Source of the DNA: Smithellaceae bacterium
GTDB taxonomy: Bacteria; Desulfobacterota; Syntrophia; Syntrophales; Smithellaceae
Length of the DNA stretch: 49,422 bases
Direction: 5' to 3'
NCBI GenBank assembly: GCA_050008655.1
Contig: JBEKMF010000003.1
Coordinates: forward strand, 1 to 49,422
A program made the position numbers and the translations under genes. The notes beneath the pieces were generated by a model. It was not told the origin of the DNA, searched no databases, and was given only the letters and a program-made list of their open reading frames with translations. Positions 5,556-38,080 of the stretch are shown here, piece after piece. How positions within the stretch are numbered: the first letter of the stretch is position 1; the number at the start of each line of letters is the position of its first letter.

Positions 5556-6311
5556 ATGAAAGCAAGGTATTCTATATCTCTAATGGTGGCAGCAGTAGCA
5601 CTGCTTATGCTCAGCATGCCTGTGCACGCGTCCCAGATGGATTACCGCATCGAATCAACTGCCCGGAATTCGTATGTGTTCAAGACCTACCTTCAGAATG
5701 ATGATATCAAAGTCGAGTCCAGGAACGGCGCCGTAACCTTGACAGGGATCGTCGCCGACAACTTCAATAAATCATTGGCCGAGGAGACCGTAGCAGGAAT
5801 CCCGGGTGTGAAGAGTGTGGACAACAGGCTGGAAGTCCAAGGTGCACCCCCCACCGCAAACTCGGATGCGTGGATCCGGGATAAAGTGAAAGACACGCTC
5901 TTGTTTCATCGGAGCGTGAGCGCCGGCACAACCGCGGTTGACGTCAAAGACGGTGTCGTGACCCTGCGAGGCGATGCCGCCAGTGAAGCACAAAAGGAAT
6001 TGACGACTGAATACGCCAAGGATGTCGAAGGGGTTAAAGGCGTAAATAATGAAATGACCGTGACAGCGACTTCGAAAAAAACACGAACGGTGGGCGAAAC
6101 GATTGATGACGCTTCCATCATCGCTCAGGTCAAGATGACGTTGTTATCTCACCGCTCGACCAGCGCCATTAACACCAAGGTCGAGTCGAAGCGTGGCGTG
6201 GTCACATTGTACGGCAAGGCGAGCAACACAGCCGAAAAGAACCTGGCCACCAAACTCGCCAACGACATAAACGGTGTGAAGAGTGTAAAGAACCGGATGA
6301 CCATCGAATAG
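5556..6311 (+). CDS. Periplasmic triple-BON domain protein (OsmY-like)
   Basis: RBS aaggag before ATG 5556; signal peptide; three GxVTLxG...GVKxVxN repeats. Confidence 0.92.
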   Translation: MKARYSISLMVAAVALLMLSMPVHASQMDYRIESTARNSYVFKTYLQNDDIKVESRNGAVTLTGIVADNFNKSLAEETVAGIPGVKSVDNRLEVQGAPPTANSDAWIRDKVKDTLLFHRSVSAGTTAVDVKDGVVTLRGDAASEAQKELTTEYAKDVEGVKGVNNEMTVTATSKKTRTVGETIDDASIIAQVKMTLLSHRSTSAINTKVESKRGVVTLYGKASNTAEKNLATKLANDINGVKSVKNRMTIE

Positions 6312-19481: not shown

Positions 19482-20048
19482 TCACATTGCCTCTTTGTCC
19501 GAACCAGCGTCGGGCTCTACGGCAGAAGAAGGGTTTGGGGAAAGACGCTTCACCCATCCTTTAAGCTCGGCCACTTGTGCCTTCAGCTCTTCTATTTCGG
19601 CCCGGCAAGCCAGGTCTGCGGCGATTTGCTGGATATTTAAATAAAGGACGGCGGCCGCGGGTGTGCCAGAGGAGAGAATCTTATAAGCCTTTCCTACAGC
19701 CTCTTCAATGTTGATTTTCTGCTCTGTTATGAGAGCGCCATAAGGCGGCGATGGCTCATGCACCGCCGGCGCGGATCCCGCTGGGCCACAAATTTCAGGA
19801 TGGTCTTTAAAGGCTCCGGGGAAAGGCTCACCCACACCCGAAAGAAACCATGCTTCATTAAATCCAAACTGTTTACAAAACGCCTCCATGAATTCAGCAC
19901 TGGGGCGTATTTTTTTAGAGCGATACTGGCTGATGTTGCTGGTATTCATCTTTAGAAGATCGGCCAAAGTTTTATTGGTTAAATTATCCCTTCGGCAGAC
20001 GTAATTAACAGCCCATCGAGTTCTTGTTTTTAATTCTTCACCAGCCAT
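19482..20048 (-). CDS. Prophage repressor (XRE/Cro-C1 HTH)
   Basis: LTNKTLADLLKMNTSNISQYRS HTH, FNEAWFLSGVGEP; divergent from ner; coiled-coil C-terminus. Confidence 0.85.
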   Translation of the reverse strand: MAGEELKTRTRWAVNYVCRRDNLTNKTLADLLKMNTSNISQYRSKKIRPSAEFMEAFCKQFGFNEAWFLSGVGEPFPGAFKDHPEICGPAGSAPAVHEPSPPYGALITEQKINIEEAVGKAYKILSSGTPAAAVLYLNIQQIAADLACRAEIEELKAQVAELKGWVKRLSPNPSSAVEPDAGSDKEAM

Positions 20049-21101: not shown

Positions 21102-21292
21102 AAAAAATACTCAACGACAGATATGGCGGACTCGCCAATCATCTTAACCGCCGTGATGCCTGGGCCGAGGGAATTATCGACGGCTTTGAGGCTTTTTTTA
21201 AAAGCGCAGGGTTGAAGAAAGTAACCTGGTTCATCATCGGCTTCGCTGTTTGTTTTTTTGGACGGGTCATTTTTATCATTATTAACAGGTGA
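21098..21292 (+). CDS. Small hypothetical membrane protein
   Basis: ATGA overlap with the previous gene, RBS ggag, C-terminal hydrophobic segment. Confidence 0.55.
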   Translation: MKKILNDRYGGLANHLNRRDAWAEGIIDGFEAFFKSAGLKKVTWFIIGFAVCFFGRVIFIIINR

Positions 21293-21302
21293 GGTGCAAT
21301 CA

Positions 21303-23549
21303 ATGGACAGGACATTTACGGCAAATAAAATCGCAACACTCATGGGCAAATCGACGCGCCACATTGAATTGAGAGCCAAAAAGGAAGCCTGGACCTATAT
21401 AGAAGAGAATGGTAACGGCCGCAACGGCAAAACAAAGAAGTATGCCCTTTCCGTTCTGCCGGGGGACATCCAGGAGGCATATATATATAAGGAAGGCGTA
21501 AAACCGGAGATTCTGCCGGTACTCAAACCATCCGCTGCCGCCATGATGATGGAAAAACACACCGGCTTCGATGAGGTGATCAAACCCCTTGCCCAGGTTG
21601 CCTTCGCATCCCCCCAGACAAAAGATAAAAATGGTTACGACGTGGAGACCTGCATCAGTGATCAGGATCTGCAAAACCCGCGCATCAAGGCGCTTCTGGC
21701 CATCCTCCGGGAGGCCGAAGCTGTACCGACCGACTGGGCAAAAGGCAAACGCAAATGGCTTGAGCTTGTCGCCAAGAAAAACAACGTCCGGTGGCAATCT
21801 ATATATAGATGGATAAAAAAATATGAAGCAAAGGGCATCGCGGGCCTGCGGCATACCAAATCCACAAACGGGCAGGCCCTGGCCTGGACGCCGGAGGCGG
21901 TTGATTTCTGGGTAAGCCTTTGCGGCAAGCGTGAGCATCGCGGGGCTAACCGCAGAGACCTCTATGAAATATTGGCCATCGAAGCGCAGCGGCGCGACTG
22001 GAAAATCGGCGGTTACGAATCCGCCAACTGGTGGTTTAAGAAAAAGTGGAATCCACTGCTCGACGCCATGCAGCGCGGCGGCATGCGCGCCCTGGATAAT
22101 CTTCTCCCGCCGGTTCTACGCGACTATTCGGATCTCGCGCCCTTCCAAATCCTGGTCGGCGATCAGCACCGTTTCGATCGCTGGGTAGTGGATGAAGAAA
22201 CCGGCGAGATCTTCCGCCCGGAAGGCTATCTCTGGCAGGACCTGCGCACCCGGGTAATTTACGGCGCCGCGGTGGATAAAAAATATGATGCCTGGCTGAT
22301 CGGCCTGGCACTGCGCATCGGCGTCTCCTGTTACGGCGCTTTCGGCAGCATCTATACGGATAACGGCAAACCGGAAATATCCAAATTTCTGACCTCGGTT
22401 CTCGCCAACATGCATTCCCTGGGAATGGACTGGCAGAAAACCGAAGAGATCATCCTCGATGTTCTGGATGTCGAAGCGGAAAACATCACACCCTGCTGTG
22501 TTCTGCCGGGTACGCACCGCAAAGCCATCGTCAAAAATGCCAAAGCCAAGATGATTGAAGGCACATTTTACCGCCTCGAGCAAATCATGGGATCCGTAAT
22601 GATGCTCCCGGGGCAGACGAAGAAACTCTCCGATGACATTCACTGGCAGGATATCGACCATGAAGAAGCGATGAGCCTGGTTAAAAAAGGGAAACTTCTC
22701 ACCAGCCGGGAATTTGCACTGGCGATGTATCTGGCCTGCGATCATTACAACAGTAAGAAAACGCACCGCGGCGTGCTCGCCGAGTGGGCGTGGAAGCCGA
22801 AGCCGAAGGAAGTCACACCCTGGGATTGCCTGAAAGCCTGCTATGGCGCGGGCTGGCGGCCGAAGATGGTTTCCAATAACGCGGCCGATCTTATTTTCCT
22901 CGCGCGGGCTTCGCGCATGGTTAATCGCGGCCGTATCAGCCTGGAAAACGAACAATACGAAAGCGACGCGCTCCTGGAATTGCACGGCGAGCGCGTGGAT
23001 ATCCGTTATAACCCGATGACGCTCGCGGAGCTGCATATTTTCCGCGGCGGCAAGTATTTATGCACGGCTGCGCCGGTAGAATATTCATCCATGATCGATG
23101 CGGATCTCGCCTCAAGGAAAATTGCCGAGAAACGCGAACGACGTTTAAAATTCGCCGCAGAATTCCAGAAGATTTCCGCCATTGCCCCCGATTTCCGGCA
23201 GTATTCAAAGGTTCCGGAAGCCGAGCGCGTAGCCGCACTCATCGGCACGGATCGGAAACGCCGCGCCATCGAAAATAAGCAGTTCACCAAACCCGTCTCC
23301 CAGCAAGAAATCGAACAGCACATCGAAAAGATGGAAGCGGGGATCGTGCTCCCAAAAAAGGCCGCAAAGCCGCTCCCGGAGCGGCCGCAATACTTCCTGG
23401 ATGATCTGACCCGGATGGAATGGATCGCCAAACATCTCCGCGCCGGCGGCGCTTTGAATGAAGATGATGAAATATTCCGCGAGCAATATCTGGCGGCACA
23501 ATCCGAAAGCCAACGGGAATTCTGGCAGTATCAAATGGGGCAAAGTTAG
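21303..23549 (+). CDS. MuA-like DDE transposase
   Basis: N-terminal Mu DNA-binding domain (RAKKEAW..GNGRNG..YALSVLP); D-D-E in VGDQHRFD, YTDNGK, KMIEGTF; Mu C-terminal domain (VDIRYNP). Confidence 0.92.
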   Translation: MDRTFTANKIATLMGKSTRHIELRAKKEAWTYIEENGNGRNGKTKKYALSVLPGDIQEAYIYKEGVKPEILPVLKPSAAAMMMEKHTGFDEVIKPLAQVAFASPQTKDKNGYDVETCISDQDLQNPRIKALLAILREAEAVPTDWAKGKRKWLELVAKKNNVRWQSIYRWIKKYEAKGIAGLRHTKSTNGQALAWTPEAVDFWVSLCGKREHRGANRRDLYEILAIEAQRRDWKIGGYESANWWFKKKWNPLLDAMQRGGMRALDNLLPPVLRDYSDLAPFQILVGDQHRFDRWVVDEETGEIFRPEGYLWQDLRTRVIYGAAVDKKYDAWLIGLALRIGVSCYGAFGSIYTDNGKPEISKFLTSVLANMHSLGMDWQKTEEIILDVLDVEAENITPCCVLPGTHRKAIVKNAKAKMIEGTFYRLEQIMGSVMMLPGQTKKLSDDIHWQDIDHEEAMSLVKKGKLLTSREFALAMYLACDHYNSKKTHRGVLAEWAWKPKPKEVTPWDCLKACYGAGWRPKMVSNNAADLIFLARASRMVNRGRISLENEQYESDALLELHGERVDIRYNPMTLAELHIFRGGKYLCTAAPVEYSSMIDADLASRKIAEKRERRLKFAAEFQKISAIAPDFRQYSKVPEAERVAALIGTDRKRRAIENKQFTKPVSQQEIEQHIEKMEAGIVLPKKAAKPLPERPQYFLDDLTRMEWIAKHLRAGGALNEDDEIFREQYLAAQSESQREFWQYQMGQS

Positions 23550-23900: not shown

Positions 23901-24596
23901 ATGATTAAGAATGAATTTATCGAGACAATCAACATCAACAAGTTTCAGAAGATTTGCGAGGAATTGGAGAATCCCGATGCGCTTATCGGGCCGTCGCTGG
24001 CGATGGTCACGGGGCCCGCGGGACGCGGAAAAACGGAAGCCGCGAAGCATTACGTCATCCACGAAAGCGCCATCTATATCCCGCCGATGAACATCTGCTC
24101 GGCGCCGATGCTGCTGAGGGAAATCGCCTTTGAACTCGGCAAGGTTCGTCCCCGGACATCGGAGGCCTGCCTCGAAATCATCGGCAAGGAAATAGCCAAA
24201 GAACGCCGCCTGATCATTATCGACGAAGCGGATCTGAAGCCGATGGCCATCCTGGAGATGCTCCGCAATATTAATGAACGATACGGCTGCCCGATCGTGC
24301 TCATCGGCGAGGACCGGCTGAAGGGCAAGATCGAATCACAAAGAAGGCTGGCCAGCCGCGTCCGGAGGCGCATGGAATTCGCGCCCATTTCCCAGCAGGA
24401 TATCGCTTACTTTTTCAAAAAGTGCATGGCGCTGAAACCTTCCGCCGACGTAGTTGCGGCGATCCTGAAACATTGCCGCGGCGACTGGCGGCCGGTACTC
24501 ACCTGCGCGATCGGCATCGAGCGGGCAATGAAAGCATCGAACCTTAAAGAAGCCACGGTGGAGATGATAACTGATGTCATTAACGACGGCCGTTAA
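23901..24596 (+). CDS. MuB-like AAA+ ATPase
   Basis: Walker A GPAGRGKT, Walker B IIIDEAD, VLIGE, LASRV arginine finger. Confidence 0.9.
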   Translation: MIKNEFIETININKFQKICEELENPDALIGPSLAMVTGPAGRGKTEAAKHYVIHESAIYIPPMNICSAPMLLREIAFELGKVRPRTSEACLEIIGKEIAKERRLIIIDEADLKPMAILEMLRNINERYGCPIVLIGEDRLKGKIESQRRLASRVRRRMEFAPISQQDIAYFFKKCMALKPSADVVAAILKHCRGDWRPVLTCAIGIERAMKASNLKEATVEMITDVINDGR

Positions 24597-25089
24597 GAAA
24601 ACAAATCTGGCCAAACGCATGCGGGCCTGGATGCGCTCTCGCACCGGCTCTGTCGGTGAACGCCGATTTTTCTCACGGGAATTATACGTCGCTCTGGGTA
24701 TTCCGGAAGGTTATGAGCGGCAAAAAGTACGCAACGCGCTGACGGATTTTCTCCTGCGCGGTGAGGTCACATTCCGGTTTAACCGCAAACGAAAACGGCG
24801 ACATTATTTATATAACCAGACCTGGCGCCGGGCACTTAAAGGCCGGATAAACCGCAAAATATTCAAGGCCATGTATGTTTCTTCGAGTTTTGCCGTGACG
24901 GATATCGTGCGCCTGGTGGGAATCAAAAAACAGAAGGATCGAAACTGGGCCGACAAGATCGTGCGGCGGATGGTCAAAGAAGGATATTTGCAGCAGGTCG
25001 CACGTAGGTTGTGCGCTCACGGATCCGGCGCGGAGAAGGTTTACCGCGTCGTCGATCGGGACAGGTTTAATTTGGAGTTAATGAAATGA
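24574..25089 (+). CDS. Basic hypothetical protein, possibly tandem winged helix
   Basis: Overlaps MuB end; Arg/Lys-rich. Confidence 0.6.
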   Translation: MSLTTAVKKTNLAKRMRAWMRSRTGSVGERRFFSRELYVALGIPEGYERQKVRNALTDFLLRGEVTFRFNRKRKRRHYLYNQTWRRALKGRINRKIFKAMYVSSSFAVTDIVRLVGIKKQKDRNWADKIVRRMVKEGYLQQVARRLCAHGSGAEKVYRVVDRDRFNLELMK

Positions 25090-25487
25090 CGAGAAAACAA
25101 TATTGGCTTACTCCTGCCGACACATATGCAGCACTAGACGCCGAATTCAAATTTGATTTTGATCCATGTCCTTATCCGCGGCCGCAGGATTTTAACGGGA
25201 TAGAGGTTCCGTGGGGTAAAGTAAATTATGTCAATCCGCCGTTTCGACGATCTGACGGGGCTTTCGGCGCGGGGCCAACTGCATTTGTCCGCAAAGCCAT
25301 CGCGGAACAACAATCCGGCAATTCATCAGTAAGCGTATTGCCCACGATGTCTTTTATCAACCTACTTTTAAATGCAGGTGCGGAATTAAGACCAATGGGA
25401 CGCATTCCCTGGATTGAGACAACATCAAGAAAGCAGTGCAAAAATTCATCGAATGTAACGGCATTTATTTTGAGAGGTAAAAAATGA
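25086..25487 (+). CDS. Short phage DNA N6-adenine methyltransferase (Dam-like)
   Basis: WLTP, FDFDPCP, PWGKVNYVNPPF (motif IV). Confidence 0.8.
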   Translation: MTRKQYWLTPADTYAALDAEFKFDFDPCPYPRPQDFNGIEVPWGKVNYVNPPFRRSDGAFGAGPTAFVRKAIAEQQSGNSSVSVLPTMSFINLLLNAGAELRPMGRIPWIETTSRKQCKNSSNVTAFILRGKK

Positions 25488-28010: not shown

Positions 28011-28090
28011 CCCCGTTAGAAATTTCCGGAGAATCGACGGGGGAGATAAGCACTAGAGGGGGGAATGATTTACGATGATTTCTAACGGGG
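28011..28090. repeat. REP-like inverted repeat copy 3 with long spacer
   Basis: CCCCGTTAGAAAT ... ATTTCTAACGGGG-TGAA. Confidence 0.85.
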
Positions 28091-28872
28091 TGAATGAAAA
28101 ACGAAAAACAGGAACACGTGAATGGGCAGAAGTCAGCAAAAACCTCTTCGTCGGTTGTAAACATGATTGCCGGTATTGCTATGCCCGCGAGCACGCCCTG
28201 CGCGTGGGCTTAATCAAATCAGCCGAGGAATGGGTGGTGATGAAGAGAAATAAATCTTTGATCATCGCCGCGCCAAAATACCTCTCCGGCCGGATCATGT
28301 TTCCGACCACGCACGATATTTTTCCGGAGCACATTGATACTACTATTGCCGCACTTCATCAATGGCTTATAGCCGGCAATAATGTCCTGATTGTCACGAA
28401 GCCGCATCTGGATGTGATTCGGGAACTTTGCGCTTCATTATCAGATTTCAAAGAGCAGATCGTTTTCCGCTTCACCATTGGGTCCGCGGAAAATCAAAGT
28501 CTTGCCTTTTGGGAGCCGGGAGCACCGACCTTTGAAGAACGCCATGCGGCATTGGCTTTTGCCTTCCATACAGGCTTTCAGACATCGGTTTCCTGCGAGC
28601 CATATCTCGATCATACCATCGAAGATCTCGTCAGTTGCCTTTCCCCGCTGGTCACCGATACGATTTGGATCGGTATAATGAATGACATCGTGAAAAGAGT
28701 TGATAGCGCACGGCTTACAGGGGGTGGCATAGATTTTCTCAACAATGTTTTATGTTTTTCATCGTGGCACCATGTCGAGTACCTTTATAATAGATTGAAA
28801 AAAAATCCCAAAATCCGTTGGAAAGACAGCATCAAAAAGATTCTGGGGTTACCGGAGGAAGAAGTCGGATGA
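28075..28872 (+). CDS. Radical SAM protein (SPL-like / phage Gp37-Gp68-like)
   Basis: GCKHDCRYCYA CxxxCxxC motif; IVTKP, WEPGAP, VSCEP. Confidence 0.85.
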   Translation: MISNGVNEKRKTGTREWAEVSKNLFVGCKHDCRYCYAREHALRVGLIKSAEEWVVMKRNKSLIIAAPKYLSGRIMFPTTHDIFPEHIDTTIAALHQWLIAGNNVLIVTKPHLDVIRELCASLSDFKEQIVFRFTIGSAENQSLAFWEPGAPTFEERHAALAFAFHTGFQTSVSCEPYLDHTIEDLVSCLSPLVTDTIWIGIMNDIVKRVDSARLTGGGIDFLNNVLCFSSWHHVEYLYNRLKKNPKIRWKDSIKKILGLPEEEVG

Positions 28873-29384
28873 CCTTCAACTGTCCCTACTGTAAAAAGGA
28901 GTTGGATTTTATGGAAATGCACTTTGAAGCGGATCTGCAGGCGATCATTGATATGCTGCCGGCATTCGGGACTCGATATTCGCAGTACGTCATGGGCTAC
29001 TGTTATCTTTTCGGCGTGACACCCTTCCGTCTGAAAGCTAAAAAAATGCGGTTGTTATTGGAAGAATTGAAACGGCTCTTCGATACGCAGTCATTTTCCT
29101 ATCAGAAAAAAACCTATCCGATCAGCCATGCAGGAATTGCCGAGGCGCTCGATATCTGCATCAAAAAAAACTTCGAGACTCCGCTCGAAAATCACAACTA
29201 TCTTAAAAAAATCATGATCGGGATCTCCGAACGCGAGAGCAAAGACAAATCCCGCAGTGATGAAAAGGTGCCGAGGGATAAGGAGCAAAAACTTCAGGAC
29301 GCAGTGCGGCCGTCTCCGGAGAAGGCACAGGAAAATTTGAAAAAGATTCATGACCTGATTGATGGTGTGGGTAAAAAGAAATGA
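28869..29384 (+). CDS. Conserved Mu-like hypothetical protein with N-terminal CxxC
   Basis: ATGA overlap; MTFNCPYC; YLF; PLENHNYLKKI. Confidence 0.7.
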   Translation: MTFNCPYCKKELDFMEMHFEADLQAIIDMLPAFGTRYSQYVMGYCYLFGVTPFRLKAKKMRLLLEELKRLFDTQSFSYQKKTYPISHAGIAEALDICIKKNFETPLENHNYLKKIMIGISERESKDKSRSDEKVPRDKEQKLQDAVRPSPEKAQENLKKIHDLIDGVGKKK

Positions 29385-29578
29385 CAGTGATCCCCTGCCC
29401 TATTTGCGGGAAGCGGTTATTCGATTTTAGCGGGCATTCCTGCGCTCCGGATTTTGAGGTGCGTATAAAATGCCGGAACACTAAATCTTGTGGAGTCGTA
29501 AAAATTAATGCCCAATATATAGGGAAAATATTGGGGAAAGCGTCCCTATCGCCTGGCGGCGATCACCCATGCGGGTGA
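29381..29578 (+). CDS. com: Com-family (possibly Ogr-like) zinc-ribbon regulator
   Basis: IPCPICGKRLFD...VRIKCRNTKSC; last gene of the early/middle operon. Confidence 0.7.
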   Translation: MTVIPCPICGKRLFDFSGHSCAPDFEVRIKCRNTKSCGVVKINAQYIGKILGKASLSPGGDHPCG

Positions 29579-29650
29579 CTAAAAAGAGAGGGATCAATTC
29601 CGCTGGCGCTTCGAGCTTCACCAGGGTTCGCTCTTAGCGAGTGTCATTGA
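29543..29650 (+). ncRNA. Structured repeat motif, copy A
   Basis: TCCCT..AGGGA-TCAAT-TC-cgct..agcg..TC-ATTGA. Confidence 0.65.
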
Positions 29651-29658
29651 AAATACGG

Positions 29659-29687
29659 TTGCAGTCGCAACTGGAAATTGATATAAA
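29659..29687 (+). promoter_or_regulatory. Sigma-70 promoter of a moron-like lipoprotein gene
   Basis: TTGCAG-17 nt-TATAAA with extended -10 TG. Confidence 0.6.
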
Positions 29688-29721
29688 ACAAAGGCTTTTT
29701 TAAGAGAGGTAGGTATTCATT

Positions 29722-30300
29722 ATGAAACAAAAACGCTTTTATTTATCGTGGTTGCTTATTATCACAATGTTATTTTTAATTTCCGCTTGCAGCAAGGGCG
29801 ATCCCACTGATTCCAGCACAACTCCGCCCGTTTTAGGCACTGATGTCAAAGCCTGGACGATCAAGGGTGACATGGCCTGGGAACTTGCCAATCAGTGGGC
29901 CGGTTCGGAAAACGACGGCGTGAAGGGGGCAAAAATAAAGCTCTTCCTGGATAATCCCGATGCCCGGCTGCTGTGGCCGAACAAAGCCGTTTTATTCCTC
30001 GGCGCGAGCGATCTGACGGGCGCCGCGGATCAGGATTTGACCCAGATAATAATCGATTGGGCTACAGTGTTTTGGTCGATCAAAGGCGAGACTTTCGGTG
30101 TCAGCATTCCTTTGAACACCCCGGGCAAAGATCAGGCGAAAATCGCCGAACTCAATGCCGCCATTAAGAGCATCTGCGGGACAGAGCATTATGTGGATAC
30201 CTCGGCAATGACCCTGACCTTTGATGTTGACGGACATCTTGATGCCGCCTCGAATGCACAGATTCAGGCAAAGATATTACTCATGGCCGCGGCGATATAG
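29722..30300 (+). CDS. Lipoprotein with degenerate SGNH/GDSL-like fold (moron)
   Basis: Lipobox LISAC; IKGDM, LFLGASDL, DVDGHL resemble SGNH blocks I, III and V. Confidence 0.65.
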   Translation: MKQKRFYLSWLLIITMLFLISACSKGDPTDSSTTPPVLGTDVKAWTIKGDMAWELANQWAGSENDGVKGAKIKLFLDNPDARLLWPNKAVLFLGASDLTGAADQDLTQIIIDWATVFWSIKGETFGVSIPLNTPGKDQAKIAELNAAIKSICGTEHYVDTSAMTLTFDVDGHLDAASNAQIQAKILLMAAAI

Positions 30301-30381
30301 TCCCTATTGCCTGAAGGCGAAGGGATCAATTCAGCTATCACATTTCAGCGCGATTCACTTCTGAAATGTAAGTTTCATTGA
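30301..30381 (+). ncRNA. Structured repeat motif, copy B
   Basis: TCCCT-attgcc tgaa ggcga-AGGGA-TCAAT-TC-agct..acatttcag/ctgaaatgt..agtt-TC-ATTGA-GG, ATG at 30393. Confidence 0.75.
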
Positions 30382-30392
30382 GGATAAATATT

Positions 30393-30779
30393 ATGAAGAA
30401 AAAAGCAATTAAAAAACTTTCACCTCGAGTAAAGAAATTAAAACCAAGAACGCGGCGGCGGGTATTTTTAGTAGATCGATCGGGCAAAAAAACCCATCAC
30501 GGAACACTCTCGACGGATCCGCCAAATTTATTATCAGAACCATTATCAAAGGAATTGATCGAGAAAATAGGAACAATGCCGCTGCCAGTATCGGAAGGAT
30601 TGAAATATATCCGGGTTGACGAATCTCAGTTCAGTGCCGGCGCGACTAAAAAATATTATTTAGTATTTCAATTTTCCAACTTTGGCTTTGCCCTGAATTT
30701 CAAAAAAGGCGACTCACCGCAGTTGGCAATCAGGAAATTGCAGGAACTGATAGAATATTTTAAAAGTAAGGCAGGATGA
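30393..30779 (+). CDS. Basic hypothetical protein
   Basis: RBS gagg overlaps motif B; Lys/Arg-rich N-terminus. Confidence 0.6.
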   Translation: MKKKAIKKLSPRVKKLKPRTRRRVFLVDRSGKKTHHGTLSTDPPNLLSEPLSKELIEKIGTMPLPVSEGLKYIRVDESQFSAGATKKYYLVFQFSNFGFALNFKKGDSPQLAIRKLQELIEYFKSKAG

Positions 30780-30787
30780 AATAATTC

Positions 30788-30815
30788 TTGCAATTGTAAA
30801 AAATAGAGGTAAAAT
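30788..30815 (+). promoter_or_regulatory. Putative late-operon promoter
   Basis: TTGCAA-16 nt-TAAAAT upstream of a roughly 130-nt leader. Confidence 0.55.
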
Positions 30816-30835
30816 CGCAGTCAATTAAGATTATT

Positions 30836-30851
30836 GAATGCCGAGAGTCCC
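30836..30851 (+). promoter_or_regulatory. Com-target-like sequence in the late leader
   Basis: GAATGCC-GA-GAGTCCC resembles the Mu Com RNA target as I recall it (GAAUGCC-UGC-GAGCAUCCC). Confidence 0.5.
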
Positions 30852-30899
30852 CAGGGAGGGATCAGTCAGTAAATCTGGCCGGCATGTATCAGGCCCAGG

Positions 30900-30940
30900 G
30901 AGGCCATCGATCTTCGGATCGGTGGCCTCTTTTTTATTTT
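30900..30940 (+). terminator. Intrinsic terminator (attenuator) ahead of the lysis/structural operon
   Basis: 13-bp stem GAGGCCATCGATC-TTCG-GATCGGTGGCCTC followed by TTTTTTATTTT; RBS aaggagg directly after. Confidence 0.88.
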
Positions 30941-30954
30941 AAGGAGGTAACATT

Positions 30955-31092
30955 ATGTTCGAAAATTTAGCTTTGGTCGCATTGGGAATTGTACTTTGCA
31001 TCGCGGCACAGTGGGCATGGAAGAAATACGGTATTCAGTTACTCGGGAAATTGTTTCCAAAGAAGGCCGATCCCGCTCAGCCGAAGGTGTAG
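30955..31092 (+). CDS. Small single-TM protein (45 aa), first late gene, not in ORF track
   Basis: RBS aaggaggt; MFENLALVALGIVLCIAAQWAWKKYGIQLLGKLFPKKADPAQPKV. Confidence 0.7.
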   Translation: MFENLALVALGIVLCIAAQWAWKKYGIQLLGKLFPKKADPAQPKV

Positions 31093-31186: not shown

Positions 31187-31627
31187 ATGCGCAGCAGTTT
31201 CGATAAAGCTTTTGAATTGACCATCGGCTTGGAGGGAAAGCCCTCCAATGATCCCCGGGATCCCGGAGGATTCACGATCTGGGGATTGGCTAAAAAATAT
31301 CATCCGGAAATCAATTTTTATACGTCGATTGAATATGCCAAAGAAGTTTATCTGAATCAATATTGGATTCCTGCCGGATGCGATAATGCTTCCTTCCCGA
31401 TGGATATATGTCTTTTTGATTCGCAAGTAAATCCACAAAACGATCCGAGACTCCCCGGCGGCGGCAATCAGGAAATATTAAATCAGGGCCCGGAAAACTG
31501 GGAAGAATACATGATGTTACGGATGGTCAGGTATATGCACGTTTCCAAACCGGATTATGTCAAAGGTCATATTTTTAGAGTGCTACGCCTCTATGAACAA
31601 ATCAAAAAATTAAAAGGAGCAAACTGA
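31187..31627 (+). CDS. Glycoside hydrolase family 108 endolysin
   Basis: [40 protein letters not shown]. Confidence 0.8.
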
Positions 31628-31629
31628 CG

Positions 31630-31827
31630 ATGAATGGAAAAGTAAAATGGTTCAATGAAAAGAAGGGTTTTGGATTTATCGAAGCCGACGACGGCAAGGA
31701 TGTGTTCGTCCATTACAGTGCGATTCAAAGTTCCGGATTCAAGACACTAACCGAAGGGCAAAGAGTTACATTCGATGTCGAGACCAACAGCAAGGGCCCG
31801 GCTGCAGTGAATGTAAGACCGGAGTGA
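31630..31827 (+). CDS. cspA: Cold-shock domain protein (CspA family)
   Basis: [15 protein letters not shown] (RNP1), DVFVHYSAI (RNP2), KGPAAVNV; RBS aaggag. Confidence 0.96.
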
Positions 31828-31837
31828 AGGAGGAATA

Positions 31838-32197
31838 TTGATAAAAATAATACACATCATGGTTGCATTTAGAGACTTTTGTCTGGCCTATATTAAATGC
31901 ATCTGGCGACTGCACAGGAGCGAAACCATAAAATATTTTATCCGTTTCGGACTTGTGATTATGGTCGTCGTTCCCATCCTCAAATATTTTCGCGGCCCTG
32001 ATTCCATTCCGATCATTTTTTATAAAATTGCCAATGTTTTTATAGGCGTCGCGGTCGCCGAGTTGATCTGGGCGGTATTTTTCAAACCTTATTTCGGCAT
32101 AGCGGAGGCTACATCCGATGATTGGAAGAACAGTTGCATGGTTTTTCGCGGCCTGCTTTACGCTGGCTGCATTATTGGTTTCTGCCTCGGCCTCTAG
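31838..32197 (+). CDS. Putative holin (about 3 TM)
   Basis: RBS aaggagg, TTG start; three hydrophobic segments; directly upstream of a lytic transglycosylase. Confidence 0.6.
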   Translation: MIKIIHIMVAFRDFCLAYIKCIWRLHRSETIKYFIRFGLVIMVVVPILKYFRGPDSIPIIFYKIANVFIGVAVAELIWAVFFKPYFGIAEATSDDWKNSCMVFRGLLYAGCIIGFCLGL

Positions 32198-32783
32198 TGC
32201 ATCAGGCAGCATCAATTACTGCCTGAAGTATTGGCCGACGGTTATCCGCGAAGCTCGTTATCACATCGGGATGGATGCCCCTGCGCATGATTTCATGGGG
32301 CAGATCGAAATCGAAAGCAATTGTAACCCCAAAGCCATAGGCCCTACCGGTGATATTGGGTTGGGACAGTTTAATTGGGATACTGCCTCCTGGCTTCAAA
32401 AAAAAGAAAAAGCACTCCGGGAAATTGCAGTAAAGGCGCGGCCTCTCAATCCGGCATGGTCGATCCGGGCGGTCGTTCTTTTTGACCGCTGGCTCTATGA
32501 AAATGTGGATTGCCGGGATTGGCATTATGCTTTCCGGGCTTATAACGGGGGCCTCACCCTGATGAATAAGGAAATTGCCAGAGCCGGAACCTGTTTCCAT
32601 AAGGCAGTAGAGAAAAAATGCCGCCGGAATATTATCGAGACGGCAAAAGGCAACCTGAATTTGTGTCAGATTAATATCTATTATCCCTACCGTGTGCGTG
32701 CGGCCGGGAAAAAATATCAGGCAATATCAGTACCGGATCCGAGTTATGAAAATATAGAGATCACAAGAAAGAGCAGGTCTTAA
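32118..32783 (+). CDS. Lytic transglycosylase (SLT) endolysin with signal/SAR sequence
   Basis: QIEIESNCNPKA, GLGQF, AYNGG motifs. Confidence 0.88.
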   Translation: MIGRTVAWFFAACFTLAALLVSASASSASGSINYCLKYWPTVIREARYHIGMDAPAHDFMGQIEIESNCNPKAIGPTGDIGLGQFNWDTASWLQKKEKALREIAVKARPLNPAWSIRAVVLFDRWLYENVDCRDWHYAFRAYNGGLTLMNKEIARAGTCFHKAVEKKCRRNIIETAKGNLNLCQINIYYPYRVRAAGKKYQAISVPDPSYENIEITRKSRS

Positions 32784-33591: not shown

Positions 33592-33834
33592 GTGGATACA
33601 GCGGATTTTGCGCAAAAAAATAATGAGATTTATCTGGATGCAGCGTTGAAAACGCAGTTGGCGAAGAGACCGGCAGATGTGGAAGCCGGCGAAATAGAGC
33701 CAGGTATCTGCATCGATTGTGAAGGGCTCATATCGCGGGCGCGCATGGCGGCAAATCCACAAGCCGTGAGATGCATCGATTGTCAGACAAAACAAGAACG
33801 GAGAGAAAAAAATGGACACATTCACTCTTCCTAA
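33592..33834 (+). CDS. TraR/DksA C4-type zinc finger protein
   Basis: MDTADFAQ; CIDCEGLISRARMAANPQAVRCIDCQ. Confidence 0.9.
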   Translation: MDTADFAQKNNEIYLDAALKTQLAKRPADVEAGEIEPGICIDCEGLISRARMAANPQAVRCIDCQTKQERREKNGHIHSS

Positions 33835-34410: not shown

Positions 34411-34873
34411 AGAAATCGACTGGGAGATCCGCGAGAGGGCGGAAGAATTATATGTCGTTGACGGACTGACCTTTGAAGAGACAGCGGCCCAGACGAAGGT
34501 TTCCGTAAACCAGCTCAAGAACTGGTCGGCTGCCGAGGGATGGCGAGAAAAAAGGGAGGAATACCGCAAAGCCAAAAAAGATATCCGCTCCACGTTAATG
34601 CTTCTGCGCCAAAAACTCGCTACCGAGGCGGCTAAAGATGCCGATCCGCAGAAAATTTTTGCTTTTATCCGCCTCGAGGCAATCGCGGAGAAAAGAGAAA
34701 GAAGGCCGGAAGGCGCTGCAATGAAGATCGACCGCCCGGCCCTGTTCATGGAAGCAATTGAATTTATAGCGGCTTTTTTAAAAGATAACGACCCGGCGGG
34801 TCTGAAGATATTGGGCAATAATTTTGATAAACTCATCGAAACATTTAAGGCGAAATATGCGCAAACGACCTGA
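34403..34873 (+). CDS. Terminase small subunit (DUF1804 / Mu gp27-like)
   Basis: RERAEELYVVDGLTFEETAAQTKVSVNQLKNW...W HTH directly upstream of the large subunit. Confidence 0.75.
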   Translation: MAKEIDWEIRERAEELYVVDGLTFEETAAQTKVSVNQLKNWSAAEGWREKREEYRKAKKDIRSTLMLLRQKLATEAAKDADPQKIFAFIRLEAIAEKRERRPEGAAMKIDRPALFMEAIEFIAAFLKDNDPAGLKILGNNFDKLIETFKAKYAQTT

Positions 34874-36458
34874 AATATCCGAATTTAGATTCGATCAATG
34901 GGCGGATGATCTTCGCGAGTGGATCCGCAAGAGCGTCTCTCCGTTTGAGGACGATACTCCCGATAAACAAAAAGAGCGCAAAGAGCGCGCCTCCTGGGAT
35001 CGCCTTTATTTTTTTAAAACATATCTGCCGCATTACTTTTTTGTGGAGTTTGAAGATTTTCATGAGGAATGGTCGGAACTCGCCGATCTGAAAAATGAAG
35101 TGGGACTTCTGGCTGCTCCGCGTGAGCATGCGAAATCGACATTCTTTTCCTTAGGATTACCGATTCACGATATTGCTTACGCGCTCAAGCATTTTATTAT
35201 TTTGATTTCTGACACCAATGACCAGGCTAAAGGATTTACTCTGCCGATACGGCTCGAGCTCGAAGAAAATCCTCGGCTCCTGCATGATTTCGGCGAATTC
35301 CAGGGACGGAAGTGGTCGGACAGTGATTTCACCACGGCGAACGGCGTGCGGGTACTGGCGCGCGGGCGCGGGGAAAAAGTGCGCGGCCTGAAAAATATGC
35401 AGTACCGCCCGGACAGGGTTATCGTTGACGATTTTGAAAACGATCAAAACGTCCGCAATCCCAAACTGGTCAAACAGGGAATTGATTGGCTCTTAACCGC
35501 CGTTCTGGGATCCCTGGGTGAAGGCTTCTCTTTTACGATGGTCGGCAATCTGTTTGCCGCCCGGTCGATTCTCTCGCAATTGATGAAAGAGACGGAGGAT
35601 GAAACCGGAAAGCCCCTGTACGTCAGCAAAATTTATGATGCCATCCGGGATGACGGATCTCCCTTGTGGCCTGCTCTTTGGCCTGCGGAAAGAATCGAAA
35701 AACGCCGCCGGCAAATGGGAACCGTCCGCTTCAACAAGGAAATGCGCAACCGTGTGGGCGCGGAAGACAGCCCGATCAAGGAATCCTGGATTCTTTATGT
35801 CCCGGCAACCGAACTCGCGCCGGAGATCTGGCTCAAAAAGAAATTTGTCGTTGCGGCTTTTCTTGACCCCTCGGGGAAAGGCACGGAAACGACCGATTAT
35901 AAAGCTATCTCCGTAGTCGGCAAATGTGTGGAGACCAATATCATCGATGTTCTCCATGCCTGGATCCGGCACGCTTCGGTCAATGAAATGTGGGCGCACG
36001 TCTGGAAAATCGATGAGGAATTTCATTGCGGGATGGGCGTGGAAATCAACATGTTTCAGGATTTCCTGATCGATTCTTATAAAAATTATGCCGAGAAGGC
36101 CGGGCGCTGGGTGAATATGAACGAAGTAACTCATTCCACGGAAAAGATCGCCCGGATCGTCAACCGGATATCGCCGCTGGCGGAATTCGGCCGGCTTCGT
36201 TTCATCAAGGGCAATTCCGATCAGGACCTCCTGGTCGAGCAGGTAATCTATATCATGGACCCGAATGTCAACGATGACGGGCCGGACTCGCTGGAGGGAG
36301 CAATCAGCTCACTGGGTTCGGAAGCGGTGAGTCTGGGAACCGACCCGAAAAAAAGGGAAACAGCATTCGGCAGAAACTACCGGGATCCGGCCCGGCCGGG
36401 TGGATTTTTCGGGAGGTTTGCAAAACATGAAGTGTATCATCCCGATCCCACCGCATAG
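34857..36458 (+). CDS. Terminase large subunit
   Basis: Walker A APREHAKST, Walker B RPDRVIVDD, nuclease FLDPS and NDDGPDSLEG. Confidence 0.93.
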   Translation: MRKRPEISEFRFDQWADDLREWIRKSVSPFEDDTPDKQKERKERASWDRLYFFKTYLPHYFFVEFEDFHEEWSELADLKNEVGLLAAPREHAKSTFFSLGLPIHDIAYALKHFIILISDTNDQAKGFTLPIRLELEENPRLLHDFGEFQGRKWSDSDFTTANGVRVLARGRGEKVRGLKNMQYRPDRVIVDDFENDQNVRNPKLVKQGIDWLLTAVLGSLGEGFSFTMVGNLFAARSILSQLMKETEDETGKPLYVSKIYDAIRDDGSPLWPALWPAERIEKRRRQMGTVRFNKEMRNRVGAEDSPIKESWILYVPATELAPEIWLKKKFVVAAFLDPSGKGTETTDYKAISVVGKCVETNIIDVLHAWIRHASVNEMWAHVWKIDEEFHCGMGVEINMFQDFLIDSYKNYAEKAGRWVNMNEVTHSTEKIARIVNRISPLAEFGRLRFIKGNSDQDLLVEQVIYIMDPNVNDDGPDSLEGAISSLGSEAVSLGTDPKKRETAFGRNYRDPARPGGFFGRFAKHEVYHPDPTA

Positions 36459-36538: not shown

Positions 36539-38080
36539 ATGAGCATTTTAGAAAGCATCGTGAAAAAAATAGTGCCGGGATTGAAGAATGAGACGGAAAT
36601 AAAAACTCTCGTCGCCGAGGAAATCAAACGCGTGCGCATGGCGCTGCCGATCACCTCCAATTATGATCTCACGGGCGACGGTTACCGCCGGTATTCCGAC
36701 AGCATAATCAACCGCAATCTCATGCCGGTGCAGCAATACCGCATGTATGAAATCGCCTATTTCATGTGGGATTCCTCCGCAATGTTTCGCCGCCTCGCGG
36801 TACTCGACCGCGGATTTCTCTTCTCGGACAGGATCGATATCACCTCGGAGGACGATGATGTCAAGGCTTTGATTGATAAATTCTGGAACGATGAAGAAAA
36901 CAAAATGGACATCCGCTACCCGGATAAAGCCATGTGGCTTTCCATCCTGGGAGACCAGTTGTGGCCGGTGGAAGTGAATCCGCAAACCGGATTTGTACGG
37001 CTCAAATACATCGACCCGTCGCTGATCAAGGAGGTCTGGGTGAATCCGGACAACACCGAACAGGTGCTGCAGGTGGAAACGATGCAATTTTCCGGGAGGC
37101 CCTCCAGAAAATATAATACCATCCGGCGCGATACGAACATTTATTCCAAAAGCTTTGAGAGGCTGATGGGCGATTGCCTATATTTGTCCGTCAATCACCC
37201 GCCCAGTGCTCAACGCGGACGTTCCGACTTCATCACGCTTTTTGATTGGATCGATGCCCTGGAACGCTACGGCTATAACTATCTGGAACGGGCGGAACTG
37301 CTTCTGAATTTTGTCTGGGATATTGAACTCAAAGGCGCGGATGAAACAGCGATTCGCAAATGGCTGCAGGAGAACCCGCCGCCTCAGCCGGGAAGCCAGC
37401 GGGCACATAATGAAAATGTGACCTGGCAGGCGGTGGCGCCGGACCTCAAATCGCACGATATGACGGAAGGTTTCGACATGGGCAAGGCTTTCATCATGGG
37501 TGCGGCAGGCAGGCCGGATTCCTGGTTCGGTAAAGGCGGCAAAGTTTATCAGACCGAAGCGGAACAGATGCAGCAGGTGCCCATTGCCGATCTCGAACAG
37601 CGGCAGGAATTCCATCAATACAACATTGAAACTTTAATCCAATTCGTCATCGATCAGGCGGTAATTCATGGAATGCTCTCCGCCGAAAAAGCCGCCGCCG
37701 GATTTACGGTGACCATGCCGACGATATCGAAAAAAGATATGAACAAAATAATTGCCGGTATTCCGCAATTAACGGCGGCGCTGGTTGTGGCGGAAAATCA
37801 GAGTTGGATACGCAAGGATACGGCAACGAGGATGTTTGCCTTCGCGGCGGATAACCTGGGTTATGAAATAAGTGCCGATGATGAAATCGAAGCGGCGGGA
37901 AAGACATTGCCGCCTGAACAGACCGACTATGCGGCACTGTTAAAGAAGACACCGAAGGATGAGACGATAAATAATAAAGCATCACTACTAGATCAGGCGA
38001 CCATCGATAAGATGACAGATGCAATCAAAGATTTTAATTCACGGCAGAAGAAAAAGGGGTCTCATGTCTCTACAAACTGA
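36539..38080 (+). CDS. Portal protein
   Basis: 513 aa between the terminase and the minor head gene; RGRSD motif. Confidence 0.8.
   Translation: MSILESIVKKIVPGLKNETEIKTLVAEEIKRVRMALPITSNYDLTGDGYRRYSDSIINRNLMPVQQYRMYEIAYFMWDSSAMFRRLAVLDRGFLFSDRIDITSEDDDVKALIDKFWNDEENKMDIRYPDKAMWLSILGDQLWPVEVNPQTGFVRLKYIDPSLIKEVWVNPDNTEQVLQVETMQFSGRPSRKYNTIRRDTNIYSKSFERLMGDCLYLSVNHPPSAQRGRSDFITLFDWIDALERYGYNYLERAELLLNFVWDIELKGADETAIRKWLQENPPPQPGSQRAHNENVTWQAVAPDLKSHDMTEGFDMGKAFIMGAAGRPDSWFGKGGKVYQTEAEQMQQVPIADLEQRQEFHQYNIETLIQFVIDQAVIHGMLSAEKAAAGFTVTMPTISKKDMNKIIAGIPQLTAALVVAENQSWIRKDTATRMFAFAADNLGYEISADDEIEAAGKTLPPEQTDYAALLKKTPKDETINNKASLLDQATIDKMTDAIKDFNSRQKKKGSHVSTN

Follow-up and report, generated by a model that had tools for sequence, protein, structure and literature searches.

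To our knowledge, the Com protein of phage Mu has for decades been known only as a translational activator of mom and methyltransferase genes. Among switches that act through terminators, the logic of Q in phage lambda is that a promoter-proximal terminator yields a short transcript until the phage factor permits read-through, and the ANTAR (AmiR/NasR/EutV) and BglG/SacY families act on small hairpins (hexaloops in ANTAR), the 3' one overlapping a terminator, with the protein favouring the anti-terminator. The RNA target of Com (PMC6483171) is a short hairpin with a stem of 3-4 bp, a closing C-G pair and a six-residue loop; it contains the motif CC(N)2-3GAG, whose GA is protected on binding, with a flanking GAG(N)2CC. 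The same source reports a motif selected in vitro (SELEX), NGAGNNCC(N)2-3GAGNNCCNN, a native Mu target, GAAUGCCUGCGAGCAUCCC, with a 4-bp stem and the loop CUGCGA, and an occurrence of the Com motif in the hexaloop of HIV TAR, also closed by C-G; binding beside a translation-inhibition structure was proposed there to melt that structure. According to a second report, known com homologues precede mom or DNA methyltransferase genes (PMC3299994). This study examined a 49,422-nucleotide (nt) contig of a Smithellaceae bacterium (JBEKMF010000003.1), analysed whole and referred to as the window, in which a Mu-like prophage encodes a small predicted zinc ribbon, termed ZnA, and carries about 1.2 kb 3' of it (1.25 kb apart in the window) a structured RNA leader with an intrinsic terminator directly before the late genes. 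On the comparative evidence, we consider it rather probable that ZnA binds the hairpins of the nascent leader, blocks folding of the terminator and turns on late transcription.

The locus resembles the Mu com-mom system in holding a small predicted zinc ribbon with four cysteines, in a short hairpin target that is closed by a C-G pair, has GA at the end of its six-nt loop and is flanked by GAG(N)2CC, and in that the target adjoins or overlaps an inhibitory hairpin thought to be disrupted by binding. It differs in that the inhibitory hairpin is an intrinsic terminator rather than a translation-inhibition structure, in that the cargo is the whole lysis and structural operon rather than mom or a methyltransferase gene, and in that the ZnA gene lies at the end of the early region, in the slot occupied by a Mor-like gene in sister phages. 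With the Mor/C activators (PF08765) the locus therefore shares a genomic position and presumably the role of switching on the late genes, whereas Mor and C are helix-turn-helix (HTH) DNA-binding activators of late promoters and no such protein is found here. As in the lambda Q system (PR'-tR'), a terminator (30897-30932) stands directly 5' of the late operon, between a promoter-like site and the first late start codon, and this layout recurs in relatives; Q, however, loads at a promoter DNA site and modifies RNA polymerase, whereas here RNA hairpins compete with the terminator. The general features of the ANTAR and BglG/SacY families, two small hairpins with the 3' member reaching into the terminator 5' arm, are also present, whereas the protein is a zinc ribbon of about 65 amino acids (aa) without an ANTAR or CAT/PRD domain match, the loop is C-Y-G-R-G-A, and the switch would be phage-encoded and developmental instead of serving a catabolic operon.

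In the proposed mechanism, the late (lysis and structural) operon would be gated by the strong intrinsic terminator of the conserved leader, and in a lysogen, without ZnA, transcripts that start at the promoter-like site or read through from upstream would stop at this terminator. ZnA produced from the early operon would bind the leader hairpins on the nascent RNA; with the second hairpin held, only a 7-bp stem detached from the U-tract could form, and RNA polymerase would read into the late genes. ZnA is proposed as the factor because of its exclusive pairing with the leader, the parallel in sister phages, the swapping of regulators on the phage tree and the match to the Com target. That Com had been repurposed as the late-gene switch through RNA-mediated antitermination was suggested in an initial annotation of the window, and all in-silico tests made here favour this suggestion, as far as comparison among genomes can carry it. 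We rate Com-type RNA recognition and the competition between anti-terminator and terminator as known parts, and the output and the late-switch role as new. A literature search with mainly open-access coverage found nothing relevant on Com together with antitermination or terminators in Mu-like phages, and an older description is possible.

In the window (coordinates in Table 1), the leader consists of a 5' domain with a first hairpin (hairpin 1), the proposed anti-terminator (hairpin 2) and the terminator. Hairpin 2 shares loop bases and its 3' arm with the 5' arm of the terminator, so that the two folds are mutually exclusive; the terminator arm contains the whole 3' arm of hairpin 2 and five of its six loop bases (30897-30901). 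The predicted energies are -7.1 kcal/mol for hairpin 2 and -27.4 kcal/mol for the terminator, and in folds of nascent-RNA prefixes hairpin 2 forms first, persists to 30920 and is displaced from 30926. When hairpin 2 is enforced with its loop unpaired, a stem of 7 bp and -7.0 kcal/mol remains, six bases from the U-tract. These energetics suggest that termination is the default state and that clamping hairpin 2 would abolish the terminator. The terminator stem comprises 16 pairs, including G-U and A-U pairs and eight G-C pairs, and is followed by the tail TTTTTTATTTT. Among the 34 terminator-like sites between 19 and 38 kb it has the longest stem, and it ranks as the strongest terminator of the phage region. 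A 13-bp UUCG terminator just before the first ribosome-binding site (RBS) had been described in the initial annotation; its location and UUCG loop stand, and the 13 bp are the core of the longer stem. No match to a described RNA family was found with Rfam, either at the gathering score in the whole window or at E <= 10 in 30700-31000.

The RBS follows the end of the terminator stem by 11 nt and the first late ATG by about 22-23 nt. A reading in which the terminator only closes the early operon and a late promoter comes behind it was rejected, since there is no room for one before the RBS. Among 11 leaders read by eye, the distance from the T-run to the first late open reading frame (ORF) is about 10-30 nt in 10 and about 85 nt in L013, and this close spacing likewise leaves no room for a promoter after the terminator. 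Whether the late transcript of the window starts at about 30822 or continues from the early operon, it would have to cross the terminator. Across 23 close leaders, TTGACA or TTGCAA with a -10-like hexamer stands 17-28 nt before a CGAGA anchor in 13.

The leader hairpins are of the Com-target type, and in a search of both strands of the whole window the only two such hairpins are those in the leader (shuffle mean 0.64). The leader class of the window (class A, below) has a core, CGAGAGCCCCUGAGAGGGCC, that agrees with the hairpin rules for Com and with the SELEX motif in its first half, and the hairpin-1 loop of one relative (L158) is CUGCGA, the same as the native Mu target loop given there; the loops of the window itself fit CC(N)3GAG only with the GAG extending into the 3' stem. 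The direct repeat pointed out in the initial annotation, CCCAGGGAGG at 30850 and 30894 of the + strand, is present (0.04 expected; 0 of 100 shuffles reach three copies), and its copies prove to be the two conserved hexaloop hairpins. A third exact copy lies on the - strand in the tail region (47764-47773) and is not in a Com-type hairpin. The string GAATGCC-GA-GAGTCCC, put forward in the same annotation, also exists, as a match of GAATGCCGAGAGTCCC (0.08 expected; at least one match in 8 of 100 shuffles), but its GAATGCC part is unconserved and the conserved part is CGAGAG. GAATGCC was therefore rejected as the conserved target: relatives have ACACC, GCGTC and others at this place, and in the window it forms the 5' strand of stem P1, so that its identity to the first seven bases of the Mu 19-mer target looks coincidental.

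Because the ribbon and the 128-aa orphan ORF near the leader have almost no close relatives, related phages were fetched through the conserved phrog_2161 neighbour of ZnA, which yielded 36 IMG/VR loci. Six of these carry a ZnA gene, the type of the window (L013, L015, L017, L018, L024, L034), and 18 carry a Com-type ribbon (four of them, L027, L028, L031 and L035, above the Zn_ribbon_Com cut-off, L004 and L014 just under it and the rest via phmmer). Six hold a Mor-like gene (L019 with a Pfam Mor match at 2.8e-16, the others linked to L019), and six have none of these (L011, L026, L029, L032, L033, L037); a Mor-like gene and a ribbon never occur in one locus. In every ZnA locus, the sequence 3' of the gene is homologous to 30786-30957 of the window. 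This class-A module opens with a -35-like TTGACA or TTGCAA. Next is stem P1, inside which lie a first hairpin, whose hexaloop reads C-Y-G-R-G-A, and a hairpin of variable sequence (HPx); beyond a linker come another hexaloop hairpin and a long terminator, and a lysis gene with its RBS and start codon follows. Among the relatives, this module comes directly after the ZnA stop codon, whereas in the window two extra genes intervene.

Several searches with different starting points led to the same pairing of ZnA and class-A leader, of which 25 distinct leaders were collected (23 close, 2 divergent). A loose RNA pattern run over IMG/VR matched at least 119 loci; among the 119 matches listed, 10 passed a stem-plus-terminator filter, and these were exactly the 10 with a ZnA ORF, while the other 109 failed it and are presumed chance matches. 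A protein-only search with nine ZnA sequences gave 26 metagenome and 4 genome loci; 3 of the 26 have less than 60 nt downstream, and the element is present in 20 of the remaining 23. In a blind scan, 187 loci and the window were searched on both strands for hexaloop hairpins that overlap a terminator (9 bp or more) in its 5' arm; 29 loci and the window gave one match each, always on the sense strand and always in a ZnA locus. With a covariance model built from nine clean leader sequences, 23 distinct ZnA loci gave one full match apiece (47.9-142.8 bits) and the window gave one in all (30830-30940, 55.7 bits, E 3e-13), with weaker matches in L013, L034 and some class-B leaders, the second class described below. 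The co-occurrence of ribbon, site and terminator in Mor-less Mu-like phages, which the initial annotation had proposed as a check, was observed: the leader stands only beside ZnA, and the Mor-like loci have neither class of leader. Additionally, the two divergent class-A leaders (L013:7792-7912 and L034:8272-8392) have three or four CUGAG-type loops and a terminator whose apical loop is CUGAGA, and they are paired with the most divergent ZnA proteins (26% identity).

Covariation was evaluated on the 23 close leaders, in each of which a canonical terminator with a U-tract competes with a Com-type hairpin. Once fitted to the model, the alignment has 99.1% of 679 cells in standard pairs, and compensatory changes occur in 25 of 30 pairs, among them all four modelled pairs of hairpin 1 and 13 of the 16 terminator pairs; the covariation score was 0.649, compared with 0.218 in shuffles (0 of 500 reach the observed score) and 0.06-0.14 with slid partners. 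In an independent MAFFT alignment, P1 and hairpin 2 were both 100% paired, and P1 had three covarying pairs. Hairpin 2 can pair in every one of the 23 leaders; one of its positions is G-C in 14 leaders and C-G in the other 9, and a further position is U-G in 8. The loop consensus across the leaders is C-Y-G-R-G-A. All wobble pairs are RNA-compatible on the sense strand; the near-absence of non-standard pairs together with the frequent sense-strand G-U pairs argues for selection on RNA and not on a DNA palindrome.

The initial annotation had taken the early operon to end in a Com-type zinc ribbon. The ribbon is present, but it does not belong to the Pfam Com family, and two genes lie between it and the leader. 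Its ATG overlaps the stop codon of the upstream gene, and none of its four cysteines (C6, C9, C31, C37) varies among 28 relatives. They form a first knuckle of CPxC and a second that is C-x5-C in the window and C-x3-C or C-x2-C in relatives. ZnA has no Pfam or PHROG family at normal thresholds and no match to Pfam Com (PF10122 Zn_ribbon_Com, curated cut-off 22.9 bits) even at E <= 10; its relatives score at most 16.9 bits on that model, and a six-frame genome search with it gave a best score of 12.9 bits, on another contig. In a profile comparison with hhalign, 28 ZnA sequences matched 12 Com-type ribbons of the sister phages with a probability of 96.1% (E 3.3e-9) over 48 columns that take in both knuckles and the K-R-L and E-[IL]-K-C contexts, although common cysteine patterns can inflate such scores. 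The 12-ribbon profile includes three of the four ZnC-subtype ribbons (L027, L028, L031, L035) that lie above the Pfam cut-off, and of the 1145 segments of the window it matches the ZnA ORF alone (E 1.3e-4).

When 1.84 billion representatives were searched exhaustively with a profile, a small family emerged, with 95 matches at E <= 1e-3, of which 31 were at <= 1e-10, mostly of 59-90 aa; the best 30 or so have no Pfam family, and two intermediates of the ZnA family approach Com, one of them passing the Com cut-off (P0038, 24.4 bits) and the other near it (P0031, 20.9 bits). ZnA is therefore treated here as a putative unannotated sister family of Com, linked to it by profile comparison and intermediates. 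The closest relative is one protein at 74% identity; 60 related genomes yielded no ZnA, viral contigs scanned with the one sequence gave no match, and a profile search of the PDB gave a weak partial match (8yoz_A, E 0.0033) over the C-terminal knuckle and helix. The absence of ZnA, Com-type ribbons and the class-B leader from the matches in 50,697 GenBank phage records fits a system known so far only from uncultured phages. In three of the four genome loci from the protein-only search, distant Com-like ribbons (39-44% identity) with the pattern C-P-x-C-G-K-R-L-F-D ... K-C-x-x-C (L185:5809-6153, L186:2639-2812, L187:5956-6156) are each followed by a different terminator, with an RBS right after the terminator in L186 and L187, and the logic of a terminator after a ribbon may extend well beyond this phage group.

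The sister phages with Com-type ribbons carry a leader of their own, termed class B. Its hairpins are GGCGG-N5-CCGC and GGCU-N5-AGCC, both with the loop C-N-N-G-A; the 3' arm of the second begins the terminator AAGCCCGG...CCGGGCUUUUUU, so that this hairpin overlaps the GAAGCCCGG...CCGGGCUUUUUU terminator, and an RBS follows directly. A strict pattern finds the class-B leader in 13 of the 18 Com-type loci, and four more were recognised by eye (together L003, L004, L007, L012, L014, L016, L020-L023, L025, L027, L028, L030, L031, L035, L038). None was found in the 6 Mor-like loci, in the 6 ZnA loci or in the 6 that have neither regulator. In L003, L016 and L030, an early-operon terminator is followed by TTGACA-17-TATTAT and then by the class-B leader, which indicates a separate late promoter in those phages. 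Three of the Mor-type loci (L006, L008, L009) have their first late gene about 160-240 nt beyond a terminator found after the Mor-like gene.

On a tree of the neighbour gene, the regulator types are interspersed and 13 changes are needed; well-supported branches force at least 3 changes for ZnA, 8 for the Com type and 3 for the Mor-like type. Near-identical backbones therefore hold a Mor-like gene in some phages and, in others, a ribbon together with the leader that belongs to it, and ribbon type and leader type stay matched even where 0.3-4.8 kb (most class-B loci) or 1.25 kb (the window) separates them.

In a rival reading, the hairpins would be a loading site of the nut or TAR type, and ZnA would modify RNA polymerase, possibly together with host Nus factors, so that it disregards terminators, giving processive antitermination in the manner of N or Tat instead of competition with terminator folding. 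In favour of it, two hairpins of a protein-binding type lie 5' of the terminator, hairpin 1 is the better conserved and yet is clear of the terminator, and many loops read CUGGGA, the Com motif also being present in the TAR hexaloop (PMC6483171). With Tat-TAR the locus has in common a small cysteine-rich protein, a hairpin on nascent RNA and, as proposed here, a release of transcription, the frequent loop CUGGGA included; the likeness is an analogy only, since the proteins, the polymerase and the mechanism (recruitment of an elongation complex) are unrelated. Such a loading site would need no overlap with a terminator, yet the overlap of hairpin 2 with the terminator is kept in both leader classes despite different sequences. 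Further strong + strand terminators, which would require processivity, were not seen in the late region, and a 65-aa ribbon offers little space for a polymerase-binding module. We hold processive antitermination, one of the two main rivals, to be unlikely.

A second alternative does without ZnA: the leader would respond to some other signal, for example a host factor, a metabolite or temperature, or would simply be a leaky terminator that insulates the late genes from early transcription, and ZnA would be linked to it genetically and have another job, such as translational control of another gene in the style of Com. Gene and leader are adjacent in most class-A loci, where linkage alone predicts co-occurrence; the known Com homologues act on the translation of mom or methyltransferase genes (PMC3299994), and the right end of the phage lies outside the window. 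Against it, ribbon and leader types remain matched through no fewer than 3 changes on the tree for class A and 8 for class B, and also where 0.3-4.8 kb of other genes part them; the hairpins are of the Com-target type, and the only ones of this type in the window lie in this leader. No other activator or antiterminator family was found. Regulation of the leader without ZnA, the other main rival, is judged unlikely.

Candidates for such another factor were sought with profiles, in a genome that is 82% complete and in which the relevant phage region is contiguous within the window. The absence of a Mor/C activator noted in the initial annotation holds: Pfam Mor has no match among 33 phage ORFs, the best six-frame score in the genome is 11.6 bits against a cut-off of 24.9 and lies on another contig, and a profile of the Mor-like proteins of sister phages reached at best E 0.86 among the 1145 six-frame window segments. 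A Q-like gene among the hypothetical proteins, which that annotation had named as a refuting find, was likewise not seen at cut-off (PF06530, best 13.3 bits against 26 in the six-frame genome search, on another contig; PF03589 unmatched). The 128-aa orphan, considered as a Q-like antiterminator from its position, was rejected because it is absent from all other loci with the same leader, and the DksA/TraR zinc finger was rejected as a type-specific factor because it is found alike in Mor-type, ZnA-type and Com-type loci. The annotation was also right that the window holds no mom gene, but this is uninformative: the contig stops inside the tail genes, and the right end of the phage, where com-mom lies in Mu, is therefore outside it.

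A purely translational role, with ZnA activating the first late gene in the style of Com by remodelling the leader so that ribosomes gain better access, and read-through achieved by other means, would agree with the activity documented for Com (PMC6483171) and with target hairpins 40-100 nt 5' of the first late RBS. The RBS and ATG are, however, unsequestered: in the predicted folds they lie outside every helix, 3' of the U-tract. The structure that competes with the hairpin is, moreover, the canonical terminator of all 23 close leaders, and we regard the translational role as very unlikely. Small phage zinc fingers of the Ogr/Delta kind activate late promoters. That ZnA might act in this way on the repeated CCC-N-G-R-GAGG sites as double-stranded DNA is hardly credible, even though the sites are direct repeats each with dyad symmetry, as nothing in the genome search reaches the Ogr_Delta cut-off (ZnA relatives E 0.055-0.24 only), the sites lie 3' of the promoter-like site in the transcribed leader, and the departures from symmetry are almost all G-U-compatible on the sense strand, which fits RNA selection.

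A number of findings weigh against control of the late genes by ZnA through the leader terminator. At the level of the protein, ZnA fails the Pfam Com model, and its second knuckle in the window is C-x5-C and not C-x2-C. At the level of the association, most class-A gaps between gene and leader are shorter than 100 nt, so that linkage explains part of it; the three most distant proteins of the protein-only search (L174, L177 and L183, 3 of 23) lack the element; and in L184, the fourth genome locus, the ZnA gene is followed only by the 5' half (P1 and hairpin 1; 6174-6245), with no hairpin 2 or terminator, which is possibly a decayed prophage. The main covariation alignment was fitted to the model and leans towards its structure, and the support for hairpin 2 is modest, with 4 bp and one covarying position at which the nine leaders of C-G form are of one similar type (GCCC/GCUC-GGGC stem) and maybe reflect a single evolutionary event. 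Finally, the sigma-70-like promoter reported in the initial annotation is present but is by itself no better than chance (22 such sites in 19-38 kb, compared with 23.0 +/- 4.5 in shuffles); the equivalent site is weaker in 10 of the 23 leaders, and the -35 of the relatives lies inside conserved C-terminal codons of ZnA, where coding alone could explain its conservation. The -35 of the window is non-coding.

A broader proposal, which we regard as evenly balanced, is that Com-type ribbons are a general modular class of phage RNA-binding antiterminators and the master late switch of Mor-less Mu-like phages, with at least two specificity classes that each have a cognate two-hairpin leader in which the second hairpin competes with the late-operon terminator. 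If true, this would be a third solution to late timing, next to the activation of promoters (Mor/C, Ogr) and to antiterminators that modify the polymerase (N, Q), and the translational com-mom switch of Mu would be a specialised offshoot of the same principle of RNA remodelling. For the Com family, antitermination that governs an entire late operon would be a new role, and for transposable phages a new late switch, and it would explain lysis timing in Mor-less Mu-like prophages of uncultured viromes associated with anaerobes. The module is tiny, a protein of about 65 aa and an RNA of about 110 nt, and its two or more orthogonal classes and clear covariation make the rules of recognition readable and the module attractive as a compact orthogonal transcription switch. 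For annotation, the gain is a protein family and an RNA motif that are unnamed in Pfam, PHROGs and Rfam.

Table 1. Features of the proposed late switch and of the surrounding prophage in the window (positions in nt; MFE, minimum free energy).
Feature	Position	Strand	Remark
ZnA	29381-29578	+	65-aa Com-related four-cysteine zinc ribbon; proposed trans-acting antiterminator
Promoter-like site	30788-30815	+	TTGCAA-16-TAAAAT; putative late promoter
GAATGCCGAGAGTCCC	30836-30851		sole match in window
Leader 5' domain	30838-30885	+	P1 enclosing hairpin 1 and HPx; MFE fold
Stem P1	30838-30843 with 30880-30885	+	3 of 5 pairs compensatory
Hairpin 1	30847-30862	+	5-bp stem, closing C-G, hexaloop CAGGGA (30852-30857); Com-target type
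HPx	30865-30879	+	variable hairpin; 5 of 5 pairs compensatory
Hairpin 2	30892-30905	+	proposed anti-terminator; GGCC-CAGGGA-GGCC
Intrinsic terminator	30897-30940	+	16-bp stem (30897-30912 with 30917-30932), UUCG loop, U-tract
First late gene	30955 (ATG)-31092	+	45-aa membrane protein (possible holin); RBS GGAGG 30943-30947
HTH repressor	19482-20048	-
MuA transposase	21258-23549	+
MuB	23901-24596	+
Radical-SAM-like protein	28075-28872		early region; Pfam E 1e-3, phrog_13321
phrog_2161 protein	28818-29384	+	gene next to ZnA
Lipoprotein-like cargo gene	29722-30300	+	ORF with signal/lipobox-like N-terminus; between ZnA and leader
128-aa orphan	30393-30779	+	directly 5' of promoter-like site; outside conserved module
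GH108 endolysin	31187-31627	+	lysis gene
Cold-shock-domain protein	31630-31827		in lysis cassette, 3' of terminator; domain E 1.7e-30
SLT	32118-32783	+
DksA/TraR zinc finger	33592-33834	+
Large terminase	34824-36458	+
Portal	36539-38080	+

The window is the entire contig, and the Mu-like transposable prophage runs on the + strand from about 19.1 kb to the contig end. A Ner-like regulator stands beside the HTH repressor, genes for GemA and Gam come after MuB, and head genes and then tail genes follow the portal gene. The early region also holds a short Dam-like methyltransferase fragment of 133 aa (25086-25487), just below the Pfam cut-off.

Of the two genes between ZnA and the leader, the lipoprotein-like gene has its sole relative among the loci in L007:5297-5911. 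It is bracketed by direct repeats (29533-29604 and 30291-30336), of which 30 nt are at 77% identity and 16 nt (AGGGATCAATTC-N-GCT) at 94%; the first copy spans the divergent 3' end of the ZnA gene, and the repeats may be scars of the insertion that parted ZnA from its leader. The 128-aa orphan has a basic N-terminus; it matched only itself in 5.8 billion clusters, had no relative in any fetched locus and no Pfam or PHROG family, and gave no usable lead from the ESM Atlas.

Cold-shock-domain proteins are RNA chaperones with antitermination activity in E. coli, and by analogy the one encoded in the lysis cassette, once made, might reinforce read-through. Further downstream, an 888-aa ORF (39419-42085) matches head-maturation-protease and major-head PHROG families and looks like a fused protease/scaffold/capsid gene.

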